Below are positions 11,249-15,238 of a DNA stretch of 64,000 nt, piece by piece. Position numbers and translations under genes: made by a program. The stretch covers positions 38,680 through 102,679 of the forward strand of contig CAVREJ010000028.1 of assembly GCA_963720135.1 (NCBI GenBank), read 5' to 3'. Origin of the DNA: an uncultured Acidobacteriaceae bacterium. GTDB taxonomy: Bacteria; Acidobacteriota; Terriglobia; Terriglobales; Acidobacteriaceae. The notes under the pieces were generated by a model. It was not told the DNA's origin and did no database searches. It saw nothing but the letters and a program-made list of their open reading frames with translations. Within the stretch, counting starts at the first letter, position 1. Each line of letters begins with the position of its first letter.

Positions 11249-14200
11249 CTACGCCATGACGGCGTGCAGTGTTTTGAAGGCTTCGGCATTGAGGCCGTCG
11301 GGCATCGCCGCCGTACGGTAGCCGAAGACCCGCAGGTAGCAATTCCCTTTTGCGTCCACGACCTCGGCATCGAAGCTTGCTTGGTCCGGATTGGGAGTGA
11401 CGACCGCATACAACTGGCTCTCCGCCAAGGCCGGCGCACGCAACAACGAAACTTCGTGGACCGCCAGTGGCAGACCAAACCGGTTTTGGACAGTCATTTC
11501 CCAAAGGCCGGCGGTCTGGAAGCAGAGCTCGATCAGCCGCGGCGTCATCAGCGTCGGCTGGTCGGATGGGCGGTGATTGCCCGGGAGGCCTTTGGCCATT
11601 ACTCCAACCATCTGCTTTCCATCCCACCAAGCCCGTTGCAGAACTTGGTAAGCCGGTCCGTGGAAATAGACGCGATAAATATCAGCAGCTTCGATGAACG
11701 AGTCAGCCGACATCTGCGGCGTCTTCCCGGTTACAGCTGTCGGTGTCTGTTTCGACAGCCGCACGCGGGCGGTGAAGTGAACGGTTTCTTGCGGCTCCGG
11801 GTGGTTGGGTAAGGTGCGCCGCCCGATGAGTCGGCAATCTGCGACCAAGCTGTCACCTTGCGGGCGGTACGCGGCTTGGACCGTAATCGTGCGCGGCTCA
11901 TCGCGGTAGAACTTGAACGGCGAGAGGAAATTTACCTCTGCCACCGCTTCGACATGCCAACCCGGAAGCACGCATCGGGCGGCTTCCGCGAAGCCTTCGA
12001 TTCCCATGACGCCCGGCAGTACCGGTGTGCCATCGATGCGATGATCGTACAAGAATGGTTGGATCTTCGGATCGAGCGTCGTCTCCATCGTCAAGCCGCT
12101 GTAAATTCCCATTCCCGTGATCTTGCCGACCATGGGCCCCTGTGCCGTTGTTTGCTTTCCGGCAACGGCTGCAAATGCGTCAGTGTCGAGCCCGCCCGTG
12201 GAATCCCACTCGGTCAGCAGAACGCCAAGATGCTGACCGACCACAACTTCACCGCGTGAACCTCCCAAGGTTAGTTCGCGGCGAATCCAAGGAATTCCCG
12301 CTTCAGGTCGGAGCATGTCGATGCCCGCCAGCTCCATCATCTTCGGGATGGAACCGCGTGTTGCCATTCCGATACCGGCCCACGCCGACCAGTCCAGGAC
12401 AATGCCACGCGTCAGTGGCCGCGTCGTGCGGAAGCTCGACGTGATCTTGCACAACAGATCGTTGGCTGAGCTGTAGTCCGTCTGCCCGCCATTGCCAAAC
12501 CGTCCTGCAACTGAGCTAAATGCTACCGTCGCTCCCAGCGGCATGTCGCCGATGGCCCGCAGCAGATTGAACCAGCCGTCACTCTTTACGTCGAAGACAA
12601 GATCGAATTCGCGTGGGTCCTTGTCTGGCAGGAAGTGGCTGCGCTCGACACCCGCAGCATGCAGCAGCACGTCAATGCGACCGCTGCGCTGGCGCACCTG
12701 GTTGACGATACTGGCCACCGCAGCCGTATCCGTAAGGTTGACGCTGAAGTAGTGCGCCGTGCCTCCGGCAGCTCGCACCGCGTCGATGGCGCTCTTGGCA
12801 GCGTGCGCCCGCTCTAGCGCTGCTAACTCCTTCTCGACCAGCGCCGGTGTAGCACGCTCACCGCGTGCCTGGATGCGTGCGAACAGATCCCGCTTCAGGC
12901 CATCTTTATCGGCCACAAAGCGCGCGACATCGGGATTATTCGGATCGGGTTCAGGCACCAGATCAAGCAAGTAGAACGTGCCACCAGAAGCTGCCGCCAA
13001 GTCAGCGGTGATGGCCGAGACGATACTTCCGGCCGCGCCAGTGATGAGAAACACAGTGTCGGTGTTCAAGGTCAGACCGGGCTGTCCATCGGCTACGGGC
13101 TGTTCTTGCAGGCCAACTGTCCAGCGCTGACCGTCCTTGTAGCCAACTTCGACTACTCCAGGGTCGCGCAGAGTTTCCTCAACAAGCAGTTCGGCAACCT
13201 CTGACGTCTTGGACTCGGCCTCGAAATCGACCGCCTTGACAAGGGCGTCGAGTCGTTCCCGCTTATAAGTTTTGGTAAAGCCGGTTACCGCGCCACCGAG
13301 CGGCGCAAGCGCTCCTGCCTCGTCGTATCCATGCTGCCCGCCCAATCTCGTGGCCGATACCAGGAATGTGCCCGGTTGTGCGACTTGGTCGAACAGAACA
13401 CGCATGGTGGTGTAAAGCAATTTCACTCTTATCTGCAGCGCCTCATGCCAAGCAGGCAAATCCAGTGTGCTGATGGATCCCTCGTAGTCCAGTGCTGGAA
13501 GCCAATAGACTCCTTGCACCGGCCCGGAGGCCAGCCAGCCTTGGAGGCGTTTGGCCAGCGTATCTGGATCGCGCGCGTCCTCGATCGCGAACACTTCGAC
13601 TCCCTTTGCCTGTAGCTGTTGGATCAATGCGCTCGCCACCCCGCCTTTGTCGGGCATGATTATCACGCGGCAACCCGCGCCAATTTTCACGCCGGTGGGT
13701 TTGCACAGGTTAAGCGGCGGCCGCAAGTTGGGCACTGGTACGCGACGTGGAATACTATCTGCCGCATCGAAGTTCGCGACTGGCAGCCGTGCAACCTTGG
13801 CCGTTGCCACAGCCGGTGTCGCAGAGACGGTTGCGGCGGATAGCCTTGTCCGCTGCCCAGCGTGTGCGAATTGAATAACGTGGGCCAGGGTCGGGAATTC
13901 GCGCAGCTTGAGATTCTCATCACGCGGGATGTTATATGCGGCGCGAATAGCAGCGAACATCTCCGCCTGCTTGACGGTGTCGATGCCGAGGTCCGCTTCG
14001 AGATCAAGGTCCAGATCGAGCATGTCCTTGGGATAGCCGGTCTTCTCCGCTACGATGTCGAGCACCTTCTCCTTAATGGAGGCATGCGTAACCGTCGCGG
14101 GCACGACAGCAGCCGGCTCGGGAACGGTCGGTTCAGCGGTCGTTGACGGTGACGATGCGGTAGGCGACAAATCGGGGCGCTTGTCATATACGAATTGGAT

Positions 14201-15238
14201 CACGTGCGCCAGGGTGGGGTAATCGCGTAGTTTGCGGTTCTCGTCGCGAGGAATGTTGTAGATTTCACGAATGGCGGCGAACATCTCCGCTTGCTTCACC
14301 GTATCAACGCCGAGGTCCGCTTCCAGATCGAGATCGACATCCAACATGTCTTTGGGATAGCCGGTCTTTTCCACCATCAATTCGAGAATGCGTTCCTTCA
14401 CCGACTCGCCAGCACCGTTGTTAGGAGTCGCCACGGCTGCTGGTGTTGTCAGTTGGGGCGAAACCGGCGTAGTCGGGGCCGCTGGCTCGCTAATCGTCGG
14501 AGACAATGAAGGCGTACCGGCCAGGTCGGGCCGCTTGTCATACACGAATTGAATCACGTGCGCCAGTGTGGGGTAATCCCGCAGCTTGCGGTTTTCGTCG
14601 CGTGGGATGTTATAGATCTCACGGATGGCGGCGAACATCTCCGCCTGCTTGACCGTGTCGACGCCAAGGTCCGCTTCCAGATCAAGGTCGACGTCCAGCA
14701 TGTCTTTGGGATAGCCAGTCTTTTCCACCATCAAAGCCAGGATGCGCTGCTTCACGGAATCGCCAGCGCCATCGGCCGGCGATGTTACCGGCGGCACGGG
14801 TGCGGTCGGCTGGACCGCGACGGGCGTCGGCGCAGGTGCAGGCGCCTCGGTCGTTTTCGGCGAGGGAGGAGTACCGCCAGCCAAGTCCGGCCGCTTTTCG
14901 TACACGAACCGAATCACATGCGCCAATGTCGGGTAGTCACGCAGCTTGCGGTTCTCGTCGCGCGGAATGTTGTAGATCTCGCGAATCGCCGCGAACATTT
15001 CTGCCTGCTTGACCGTGTCCACACCGAGATCCGCTTCCAGATCAAGATCGACATCCAACATGTCTTGCGGGTAACCGGTCTTCTCAACCATTAAGGAAAG
15101 GATGCGTTCCTTCACCGATTCGCCAGCGCCGTTCCTAGGAAGCACAGCGGGGGTTGCCGCAGGAACCTTCGTTACTTCCTTCACCGTCGCCCGCGTGGCC
15201 GATGCCGTCACGGCCGGTATCTGTTCTTTGACCGGCAT
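11249..15238 (-). CDS. PfaA-like megasynthase, C-terminal part: 4x tandem carrier (ACP) domains - ketoreductase - hot-dog dehydratase
   Basis: 1,329 aa.
- Four repeats of ...LDLEADLG[VI]DTVKQAEMF...
- KR Rossmann [13 protein letters not shown] and DYSSAND.
- DH motif [10 protein letters not shown] (HxxxGxxxxP).
ATG 15238 has no obvious SD and lies inside the 3' end of the upstream ORF. This ORF is probably the continuation of 15135-20139. Confidence 0.9.
   Translation of the reverse strand: [1329 protein letters not shown]
13865..15127 (-). repeat. Four tandem coding repeats (about 330-360 nt each) encoding carrier-protein domains
   Basis: Amino-acid repeats start at residues ~38, ~158, ~276 and ~386 of the 1,329-aa ORF. 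Copies 1-3 are nearly identical in protein sequence but differ at synonymous sites. A/P/T-rich linkers separate them. Confidence 0.9.

Follow-up and report, generated by a model that had tools for sequence, protein, structure and literature searches.

The 64-kb stretch of acidobacterial DNA analysed here (the window) encodes four tandem repeats that we confirm to be real carrier-fold PP-binding domains with Thr at the position of the modified Ser. To our knowledge, the cofactor is borne by Ser in every characterised carrier protein, Ser being the universal attachment residue, and a literature search for phosphopantetheine on Thr in any protein found no report and no precedent. From sequence comparison and gene context, we judge it reasonably likely that this Thr is the 4'-phosphopantetheine attachment site, served by a dedicated 4'-phosphopantetheinyl transferase (PPTase), in functional carriers of a Type R synthase. 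If true, the Ser rule for carrier proteins would have its first natural exception here.

Four carrier repeats with Thr at the attachment position

The repeats lie in a minus-strand ORF (11249-15238) whose translation of 1329 aa contains four acyl-carrier (ACP) copies of ~82 aa each, separated by Pro/Ala/Thr-rich linkers in an array spanning 13865-15127. Each copy has a conserved stretch beginning LDLEADLG[V/I] and carries Thr within DLG[V/I]DTVKQAE. In ACP1 (14879-15124) this residue is Thr75 of the ORF, encoded by ACG at 15014-15016; in ACP2 (14519-14764) it is Thr195 (ACG, 14654-14656), in ACP3 (14165-14410) Thr313 (ACG, 14300-14302) and in ACP4 (13865-14086), the most divergent repeat with 70% identity to ACP3, Thr421 (ACC, 13976-13978). 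The original prediction had placed Thr in all four repeats at precisely these codons, and the minus-strand reading agrees. No other ACP-like ORF was found in the window, which leaves these four domains as its only carriers.

Pfam PP-binding (PF00550) detects the array in four stretches. Taken singly, the repeats reach 27.1-31.1 bits, above the gathering score of 20.8, which places all four in the family by profile score. In the HMM alignment, a check suggested along with the original prediction, Thr falls on the column of the phosphopantetheinyl Ser in every repeat, so that none of the four has the conserved Ser of the (D/H)S(L/I) motif. Comparison with solved carrier proteins by phmmer likewise set Thr opposite the modified Ser, aligning DLGVDTV with DLGVDSI of PigH and with DLGADSL of the bacterial ACPs 2ehs and 2lol. 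An AlphaFold2 model of ACP3 (pLDDT 87) predicts a helical-bundle carrier fold in which Thr37 is the last residue before helix II (residues 38-51), at the N-terminus where the attachment residue is expected, and all 50 PDB matches listed by Foldseek for this model are carrier-protein chains, with a best TM of ~0.6. A genuine Ser at the attachment position appeared in none of the alignments we made, and no homologue revealed a different, non-carrier fold.

The window repeats differ from one another at 34-34.5 synonymous and 4.5-5 non-synonymous sites over 74 codons, corresponding to a dS of ~1.7-2.0 and a dN/dS of ~0.015 (two pairs computed). The earlier claim that Thr is not a single sequencing error thus holds, since the repeats are synonymously diverged and Thr is kept in more than 1,100 homologous copies.

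Thr and Ser across the family

In an HMM census covering homologues and related loci, the homologue survey that the original prediction had called for, 1,127 domain copies carried Thr and 63 Ser, of about 1,200 family copies. Thr was rightly read in the four domains, but the trait is not confined to one gene, as had been supposed, and extends through a very large family. All 451 ACP motifs of the best 120 homologues have Thr and none has Ser. The same is true of all 302 ACP motifs in 80 related genome loci, which were retrieved via the KR-DH region without consulting the ACPs, and the closest of which belong to Korobacteraceae and other Terriglobia; no Ser codon occurs among them, and Thr is encoded by ACC (150 copies), ACG (108), ACT (28) and ACA (16). 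A Ser codon lies one substitution away from a Thr codon. No variation occurs in the DTVKQA columns of 426 unique copies whose extraction itself required this motif, and two looser patterns that left the attachment position free again returned Thr only. The helix-II motif around the Thr, DLGxDTVKQAE, which includes the canonical PPTase recognition residues, is conserved more strongly than any other part of the domain. In the census, well-conserved copies have only Ser or Thr in the attachment column, and Ala, Gly, Asp, Glu, Gln and Met are confined to a small number of additional, clearly degenerate domains in distant proteins. Family members carry one to eight ACP copies, and each protein is either all-Thr or all-Ser; a mixed protein was never seen, and a change of state hits every copy together. 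Because of the census counts, the use of all four Thr codons and the dN/dS of ~0.015, Thr is confirmed, at the level of sequence, to be neither an error nor a local oddity but a residue kept by selection family-wide.

The Ser-type relatives belong to the same ACP subfamily (one of two examples compared contains TGYP) and occur in KS-AT-(KS)-ACP2/3-KR-DH proteins with an adjoining PPTase. Ser-type metagenome clusters (L084, L087, L090, L092, L103, L111 and others) are like the window in TGYP, DLE..LG[VI]D-x-VKQAE and YPTLxH, as well as in the KS-AT-(KS)-ACPn-KR-DH order with a PPTase alongside. They differ in having Ser at the attachment position and two to three ACPs, and in lacking the basic residues R60, K65 and R67, which are near-invariant in the Thr type. 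Since clusters of the same architecture have Ser at this position, Ser and Thr have exchanged in evolution. In a rough KR-DH tree, Ser-type lineages fall both inside and outside the Thr clade, with at least two to three Ser/Thr exchanges (Ser outgroups, a nested marine Ser clade, and P0135, a single Ser fragment among acidobacterial Thr types). Some relatives have no integrated ACP (P0136, P0170, P0185) or only degenerate ACP-like domains whose residue at the column is Met, Ala, Gln or Glu (P0233, P0222), so the family can evidently run on other carrier arrangements.

The synthase cluster and its PPTase

The carrier ORF has the Pfam order ACPx4-KR-DH, with the KR core at ~12377-12820 and the PS-DH region at ~11300-12100, and both the KR motif YSSAN and the DH motif HxxxGxxxxP were found. 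In relatives, this part is the C-terminal portion of one ~3080-aa protein, continuous in 65 of the 72 related loci compared and mostly encoded by one intact ~9.2-kb ORF. The rest of the window's synthase is encoded on the same strand by 15135-19262, comprising the C-terminal half of KS1, a malonyl-type AT (GHSLG, HAFH) and a second KS/'CLF' that keeps Cys (INSACAT) and two His, and by 19054-20139, the N-terminal half of KS1 with the active-site Cys (DAACAS), which lies within the synthase ORF in 68/72 related loci. A frameshift at ~15135-15261, seen as a frame change in tblastn and in the DNA alignment to locus L001, splits the KS/CLF ORF from the ACP ORF, and a 1-nt insertion relative to L001 at ~19230-19250 cuts KS1 in two. 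With another in an epimerase gene, the window has at least three frameshifts, and its copy of the synthase, with two of them, may not be expressed as one protein. Judged by their motifs, the partner domains KS, AT, KR, DH and PPTase look competent, the KS motifs including Cys plus both His motifs (EGHGTS, KSNIGH).

The PPTase (4791-5561, minus strand, 256 aa) scores 64 bits against PF01648 (cut-off 25). It has the ACPS superfamily domain, the size (~230-260 aa) and the motifs ((V/I)xxSxSH, GxDxE, WxxKE(A/S)xxK) of the Sfp type, here as ISLSH, GCDLE and WSAKESTMK, and these are conserved in 72 orthologues; the co-encoded PPTase had been correctly anticipated at this place, and its catalytic motifs look intact. 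It lies next to the Thr-type synthase in 73/80 related acidobacterial loci. In four distant Thr-type clusters a PPTase lies downstream, directly adjoining in three, and in 16 distant Thr-type megasynthases it is fused at the C-terminus, the recognisable carrier motifs all being Thr-type. Between synthase and PPTase, on the same strand, lies a single-chain carboxylase of 1883 aa with the order BC-BCCP-ACC_central-CT (5558-11209; Pfam, NCBIfam), found at this position in 66/80 related loci. Directly upstream of the synthase, Pfam identifies an acyl-CoA dehydrogenase (20556-22289) and ETF alpha/beta (22264-24035), also on the minus strand (20556-24035 together); the dehydrogenase is kept upstream in 71/80 loci, and with ETF it is a possible reductive partner of the synthase.

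This arrangement matches the 'Type R' secondary lipid synthase cluster, described as a single pfaA homologue of the order KS-MAT-CLF-ACP(3-6)-KR and a PPTase gene downstream (Shulse & Allen 2011, PMC3098273), with an ACC gene between the two in Koribacter versatilis Ellin345 (PMC3098273). The window shares with it the KS, AT, second KS, four ACPs and KR, as detected by Pfam, the PPTase downstream and the ACC in between, in an order kept in related loci, and the host group agrees with the closest loci of the window genes. The description lists no C-terminal DH, which the window synthase has, and it treats the ACPs as ordinary, leaving the attachment residue unmentioned (PMC3098273). Matched on described architecture, the window gene belongs to the uncharacterised Type R cluster, KS-AT-KS/CLF-ACPn-KR-DH, then ACC, then PPTase.

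The PUFA synthase PfaA carries tandem carrier domains between AT/KS and KR-DH, works iteratively and has a dedicated Sfp-type PPTase, PfaE. The window enzyme resembles it in the tandem carriers before KR-DH, the Sfp-type PPTase and the motif D[LM]E.DLGID.IK, and differs in the second KS in the same chain and in its Thr; the canonical ACPs of PUFA synthases that the same search brought up read DLGIDSIKRVE and so carry Ser, as had been assumed. Against TIGR02813 (PfaA), the window ORFs score 407.6 and 393.3 bits, which even when summed for a split gene stay below the cut-off of 1010.1, and neither the Pfam-scanned window ORFs nor the conserved neighbourhood contain pfaB, pfaC (KS-CLF-FabA-type DH x2) or pfaD (ER). 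The enediyne polyketide synthase PKSE is KS-AT-ACP-KR-DH-PPTase, with just one ACP, of the Ser type, and without a second KS. The 16 distant Thr-type relatives share this domain order with the C-terminal fused PPTase and are likewise iterative and without ER, whereas the window enzyme has a separate PPTase and no enediyne tailoring genes.

Proposed phosphopantetheinyl-threonine and its alternatives

We propose that the four repeats would be functional acyl carriers in an iterative secondary-lipid/polyketide megasynthase of the PfaA-like Type R, with the order KS-AT-KS/CLF-ACP4-KR-DH. The 4'-phosphopantetheine arm would be placed on the Thr of DLGxDT[V/I]K, giving O-phosphopantetheinyl-threonine instead of the Ser adduct, by the dedicated Sfp-type PPTase (4791-5561), which in some relatives forms one chain with the synthase and whose substrate residue in this system would have to be Thr. 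The holo-domains may then carry malonyl and growing acyl thioesters among KS, AT, KR and DH as in PUFA synthases, with malonyl-CoA presumably supplied by the co-encoded carboxylase. Since Thr is the rule throughout a large and widespread family with a PPTase of its own, attachment to Thr is probably normal in this enzyme family. The original prediction had left three options side by side, namely modification of the Thr by the co-encoded PPTase, loading of another residue, and unmodified scaffolds. The first is favoured because well-conserved copies have only Ser or Thr in the column, the Ser and Thr types share an architecture, and the PPTase is syntenic or fused.

The scaffold option, which we regard as less likely than Thr modification and, taken by itself, as unlikely, holds that the repeats are apo carrier-like docking or oligomerisation modules in which Thr preserves the fold and blocks modification, while CoA or a separate carrier of the Ser type, for instance the housekeeping AcpP, transports the intermediates. 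E. coli ACP(S36T), with the same change at the same structural position, folds, stays unmodified, and according to the published description cannot be modified by 4'-PP and does not function (PMC3340395); however, it is an engineered protein, whereas the Thr of this family is a naturally selected state with its own Sfp-type PPTase. The relatives with absent or degenerate ACPs, and the acyl-CoA dehydrogenase and carboxylase that tie the operon to CoA metabolism, are also consistent with a scaffold. Yet a scaffold should tolerate Ala, Gly or Asn at the column, where conserved copies have Thr or Ser only, and the best-conserved part of the domain is the very motif that holds the PPTase recognition residues. 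Moreover, a PPTase with intact catalytic motifs adjoins or is fused, no other carrier lies nearby, and Ser-type sister clusters share the layout. The tandem arrays of one to eight copies also mirror PUFA synthases, in which ACP copy number raises throughput. That a residue other than this Thr bears the prosthetic group, or that the Thr bears a different group, seems very improbable. A helix-I Ser (G-E-S-V-K, near the helix start) is present in all four window repeats but in only 153 of 426 unique copies, and the domain has no conserved Ser elsewhere. Thr in KTGYP and in YPTL hardly varies, but it is equally conserved in the Ser-type relatives and therefore does not compensate for a lost Ser. 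As for a different group, the cluster's only transferase belongs to the PPTase superfamily.

Two further explanations concern how the Thr arose. That the Thr codons stem from sequencing error or assembly-specific pseudogene decay we consider next to impossible; the frameshifts do indicate that the assembly is error-prone or the locus decaying, but Thr occurs in the homologous copies of independent genomes and metagenomes, the relatives mostly have an intact ORF, and the dN/dS is low, which together refute an artefact as the source of the Thr itself. A sub-case of Thr modification that differs on why Thr is there, and to which we give a small chance, is that PPTases take Ser or Thr equally and that a near-neutral Thr was fixed early and inherited. 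The repeated exchanges in the rough KR-DH tree fit this, as does the fact that no robust PPTase determinant splits the Thr and Ser systems: in our search for one that cleanly tracks the state, GCDLE proved lineage-specific, A51 is kept in the 75 stand-alone Thr-associated PPTases compared and E119 is a tendency with exceptions. A near-neutral Ser, however, should be common at one substitution's distance, and it is absent from the 302 copies of the related loci despite full turnover of the four Thr codons, and from the 451 copies of the closest proteins; in addition, the copies within one protein switch together.

We lean slightly towards the broader claim that the carriers of these widespread megasynthases naturally use O-(4'-phosphopantetheinyl)-threonine, installed by dedicated or fused PPTases, with Thr actively selected and not merely tolerated. 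Such a preference might serve to insulate the carriers from housekeeping PPTases or (ACP) hydrolases, to provide a more stable linkage that better resists beta-elimination, or to restrict the geometry of the arm.

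Fold and position of the Thr in the four repeats

The minus-strand ORF at 11249-15238 (1329 aa) opens with four repeats of ~82 aa (ACP1-4, 13865-15127), which are joined by Pro/Ala/Thr-rich linkers and share the sequence YPTLAHVI. In all four, the residue following the conserved Asp is Thr, encoded by exactly the codons of the original prediction (ACG at 15014-15016, 14654-14656 and 14300-14302, and ACC at 13976-13978). The predicted carrier-domain identity held for each repeat alone, with scores of 27-31 bits against the Pfam PP-binding gathering score of 20.8. The predicted location of the Thr in the Ser position was reproduced by phmmer, which aligned DLGVDTV with DLGVDSI of PigH (5y08) and also with DLGADSL of the ACPs 2ehs and 2lol, where the modified Ser faces the Thr. 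An AlphaFold2 model of repeat 3 (pLDDT 87) is a helical bundle, with the Thr as the final residue ahead of helix II, and all 50 matches listed by Foldseek against the PDB were carrier-protein chains. The Pfam, phmmer and AlphaFold2/Foldseek results therefore place a Thr, not a true Ser, at the column of the attachment Ser, and a carrier fold around it.

Repeats 1-3 are mutually 94-95% identical in protein and the fourth 70%, and the repeat DNAs differ at most synonymous positions. For two repeat pairs, the Nei-Gojobori method over 74 codons gave 34-34.5 synonymous versus 4.5-5 non-synonymous differences, corresponding to a dS of ~1.7-2.0 and a dN/dS of ~0.015, and thus the repeats are old duplicates, each under strong purifying selection.

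Thr and Ser across the family

The comparison of Ser and Thr at this column among homologues, proposed with the original prediction, returned Thr throughout in the closest homologues and loci. With a pattern that left the position free, 451 of 451 ACP motifs in the 120 best homologues carried Thr. A genome scan of one genome per species was anchored on KR-DH and is therefore blind to the ACP sequence; its 80 closest loci, outside which Roseiflexus, Elusimicrobium, Solibacter and Koribacter fall, contained 302 ACP copies, all with Thr (ACC 150, ACG 108, ACT 28, ACA 16). Across these loci the Thr codons interchange freely, and Ser codons, one substitution off, occur in 0 of 302 copies. The D-T-V-K-Q-A columns were invariant in 426 unique domain copies, an extraction that adds nothing to the looser scans because the DTVKQA motif was required.

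When 1.84 billion cluster representatives were searched exhaustively, 3,827 proteins passed E ≤ 1e-30. The best 150 of these, which are 50%-identity representatives with identity to the query down to ~32% and lengths up to 4,019 aa, comprised 109 proteins with only Thr-type ACPs (Thr at the attachment column), 10 with only Ser-type ACPs and 31 with no ACP, so that 109 of the 119 ACP-containing proteins were Thr-type. An HMM census of all sequences fetched counted 1,127 Thr and 63 Ser. The few cases of Ala, Gly, Asp, Glu, Gln or Met come from extra domains in distant proteins, and these domains are visibly degenerate; the survey sets overlap in origin, and these counts are therefore not independent events. 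Thousands of proteins, from soil Acidobacteriota and other sources, make up this family, in which Thr-type domains predominate. Some relatives with KR-DH identity of 39-59% depart from this: the attachment column of ACP-like domains is Met, Ala, Gln or Glu in P0233 and P0222, and P0136 (KS-AT-KR-DH), P0170 and P0185 have no ACP domain. These may be collapsed repeat assemblies, or real variants with a trans carrier.

Ser-type relatives were located by scanning metagenome contigs for DNA encoding G[VI]D-Ser(TCN)-VKQA[DE]. This yielded 37 loci, many with tandem ACPs of the same subfamily and Ser at the site, and these ACPs are embedded in the same architecture as the Thr-type ones, KS-AT-(KS)-ACP2/3-KR-DH followed by a PPTase. 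A rough neighbour-joining tree of KR-DH shows a large Thr clade with several Ser lineages outside it. Within the Thr clade, a marine Ser clade branches beside the Thr-type protein P0232; P0232 and the Ser-type locus L103 have matching gene neighbourhoods. One Ser fragment (P0135) sits amid acidobacterial Thr types. The state is uniform across all ACP copies of any single protein. From the Ser-type relatives and the tree it follows that the column is homologous to the attachment Ser and that Ser and Thr switched more than once; in conserved domains, the column switched to no residue other than these two.

Linkage to the PPTase and the role of the Thr

The 4'-phosphopantetheinyl transferase (PPTase) of the window (4791-5561, minus strand; 256 aa) carries the motifs ISLSH, GCDLE and WSAKESTMK, and a PDB sequence search with it gave only a marginal, uninformative AcpS match (E = 0.87). 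The gene order acyl-CoA dehydrogenase (ACAD), synthase, [carboxylase (ACC)], PPTase is conserved among the 80 loci, of which 73 contain the PPTase, 66 the ACC and 71 the ACAD. In the distant Thr-type clusters of P0181, P0145, P0194 and P0232, the PPTase lies downstream of the synthase, directly adjoining it in three of the four. Furthermore, among the best 150 representatives, the chains of 16 Thr-type megasynthases end in a fused PPTase domain (P0175, P0191, P0192, P0204, P0207, P0219, P0223, P0226, P0228, P0230, P0240, P0242, P0245, P0247, P0252 and P0267). In the nine fused domains listed with both motifs, GxDxE and WxxKE are intact, and the ACP motifs recognised in PPTase-fused chains are exclusively Thr-type. 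The domain order of the fused relatives, KS-AT-(KS)-ACPn-KR-DH-PPTase, equals that of the enediyne PKSE; P0208 and P0191 have an additional N-terminal NMO/PfaD-like enoyl reductase domain. Within the 64-kb window, no ACP-like ORFs were found beyond the four Thr-type domains.

We looked for residues of the PPTase that follow the Thr state. The Cys of GCDLE is >90% conserved in acidobacterial PPTases and is Ile or Val in Ser-associated PPTases and Sfp, but distant Thr-type clusters read GLDIE, GIDLE or GFDLE; the Cys is therefore lineage-specific and was rejected as a determinant. Two columns, A51 (Sfp V54) and E119 (Sfp K112) in window numbering, distinguish the 75 PPTases associated with Thr from the 11 associated with Ser, a phylogenetically confounded comparison of sequences that offers a lead rather than a finding. 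As a strict determinant E119 fails, since this position is Thr, Val or Ala in four of the PPTase domains fused to Thr-type synthases, and it represents a tendency, not a rule. On the carrier side, ACP columns 60, 65 and 67 in the helix II-III region are near-invariantly R, K and R in Thr-type domains, and Val, Val and Ser in the closest Ser-type relatives. Speculatively, these basic residues may be the partners of the acidic side chain that is enriched at position E119 of the PPTase.

Of the readings considered, the most likely, and a reasonably probable one, is that the Thr is the 4'-phosphopantetheine attachment residue. The sequence and structure comparisons establish the carrier fold, the positional homology, the selection, the Ser/Thr exchange and the synteny and fusion of the PPTase, whereas the modification itself, and any reason for the preference for Thr, we infer. 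The in-cluster or fused Sfp-type PPTase would attach 4'-phosphopantetheine to the motif Thr, and the tandem holo-domains would take part in an iterative KS/AT/KR/DH cycle supplied by the carboxylase of the cluster. The main evidence against Thr as the attachment residue is the absence of a precedent for Thr modification. According to PMC3340395, 4'-phosphopantetheine cannot be attached to E. coli ACP(S36T), and this mutant is non-functional, a result that pertains to the AcpS-type enzyme.

The idea that Thr-type domains act as an unmodified scaffold draws some support from relatives whose ACPs are missing or degenerate, but a scaffold leaves both the strict Thr/Ser alphabet and the PPTase unexplained, and we regard it as rather unlikely. 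That the Thr is modified but effectively neutral is about as unlikely, and the lack of Ser among hundreds of copies speaks against it. Attachment at another residue, or of another group, appears very improbable; the 426 unique copies contain no conserved Ser elsewhere in the domain, and a Ser by helix I, present in only 153 of them, was rejected as the site. The homologue surveys together with dN/dS rule out a sequencing error or a pseudogene as the source of the Thr, bearing out the earlier statement that it is not a single sequencing error. Assembly indels in the window are irrelevant to a substitution common to the whole family. We give an artefact hardly any weight.

To our knowledge, the carrier proteins of fatty-acid, polyketide and non-ribosomal-peptide synthesis are taken without exception to bear their phosphopantetheine arm on a conserved Ser, and the curated resources we know of list Ser-linked modification only. 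Motif definitions rest on this rule, and PROSITE PS00012 allows Ser only. A full-text literature search found no mention of Thr-linked phosphopantetheine, Ser-to-Thr carriers, the DTVKQ motif or a follow-up of the Type R clusters described below. Carrier domains and PPTases as such are familiar, but we know of no earlier large family in which selection maintains Thr at the attachment position; the Thr-type family tests the conserved-Ser rule and would surprise specialists. If the Thr is modified, PPTase chemistry reaches a secondary alcohol, the carrier and PPTase form a naturally orthogonal pair for labelling and pathway engineering, and tools calling Ser-less carriers inactive would mis-score a major class of uncharacterised lipid/polyketide clusters. 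If it is unmodified, an abundant megasynthase family runs without integrated holo-carriers, which would be equally unexpected.

The synthase gene and its neighbourhood

All genes of the cluster lie on the minus strand and were assigned with Pfam: the N-terminal half of a KS (19054-20139), its C-terminal half with AT and a second KS (15135-19262), the four ACPs with KR and PS-DH (11249-15238), a single-chain carboxylase of 1883 aa (BC-BCCP-ACC_central-CT, 5558-11209), the PPTase, and, upstream of the synthase, an ACAD with ETF alpha/beta (20556-24035). The first KS carries DAACAS, EGHGTS and KSNIGH, the AT GHSLG and HAFH, the KR YSSAN and the DH HxxxGxxxxP. The cluster is a "Type R" secondary lipid synthase cluster of Shulse & Allen 2011, defined by a pfaA homologue KS-MAT-CLF-ACP(3-6)-KR with the PPTase downstream and, in Koribacter versatilis Ellin345, an ACC gene between the two; the attachment residue receives no comment there (PMC3098273). 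The synthase is PfaA-like, yet it scores 407 and 393 bits against the NCBIfam PfaA cut-off of 1010, and no curated family claimed its proteins in the NCBIfam scan. The nearest genomes are Terriglobia, Korobacteraceae MAGs among them, with identity up to 82%.

Of 72 related loci, 68 encode both KS halves in a single ORF, and 65 encode the CLF (second KS) and ACP parts in one ORF of ~3,080 aa (~9.2 kb). The window copy is broken at ~19,240 (overlap 19054-19262) by a 1-nt insertion in KS1 relative to the related locus L001, whose synthase ORF (3314-12562 of that locus) is intact, and by a frameshift in the CLF-ACP linker at ~15,135-15,261. An NAD-dependent epimerase is split as well (3777-4091/3883-4794), its two parts lying in different frames and matching Pfam profile positions 1-96 and 93-239. 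Several other MAG loci show similar breaks. These frameshifts, at least three in the window, interrupt genes that are otherwise intact and are probably assembly indel errors; possibly, the locus is decaying.

The second KS (15552-17063, residues ~734-1237 of ORF 15135-19262) has kept its Cys (INSACATTAQ) and two His motifs (VSHETYT and KGMTGH), and by these motifs it may be an active ketosynthase instead of a Cys-less chain-length factor. The synthase is without an ER domain. Directly upstream, 20556-27529 encodes the ACAD (577 aa), ETF alpha/beta, a CCG-domain protein and a 4Fe-4S protein; the ACAD may be the source of the missing enoyl reduction, or may act on the product. The carboxylase, eukaryote-like in its single chain, lies between synthase and PPTase in 66 of 80 loci. 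Instead of it, distant Thr-type clusters have different biotin/carboxylase genes, namely split ACC subunits (L124), a carboxyltransferase (L118), a biotin-protein ligase with ACC (L121) or bioB/F/D/A (L125), and a tie to dedicated malonyl-CoA supply recurs across Thr-type clusters. Past the PPTase (1291-4794 and 30-1247) lie a family 21 glycosyltransferase, an FAD oxidoreductase and NAD-dependent epimerases. The glycosyltransferase is confined to the six closest of the 80 loci and could indicate a glycolipid end product in the window's lineage. Elsewhere in the window, and without relation to the carrier domains, 49375-52254 (minus strand) encodes a 959-aa protein with a strong match to the animal haem peroxidase family (PF03098, 228 bits), which is unusual for a bacterial genome.
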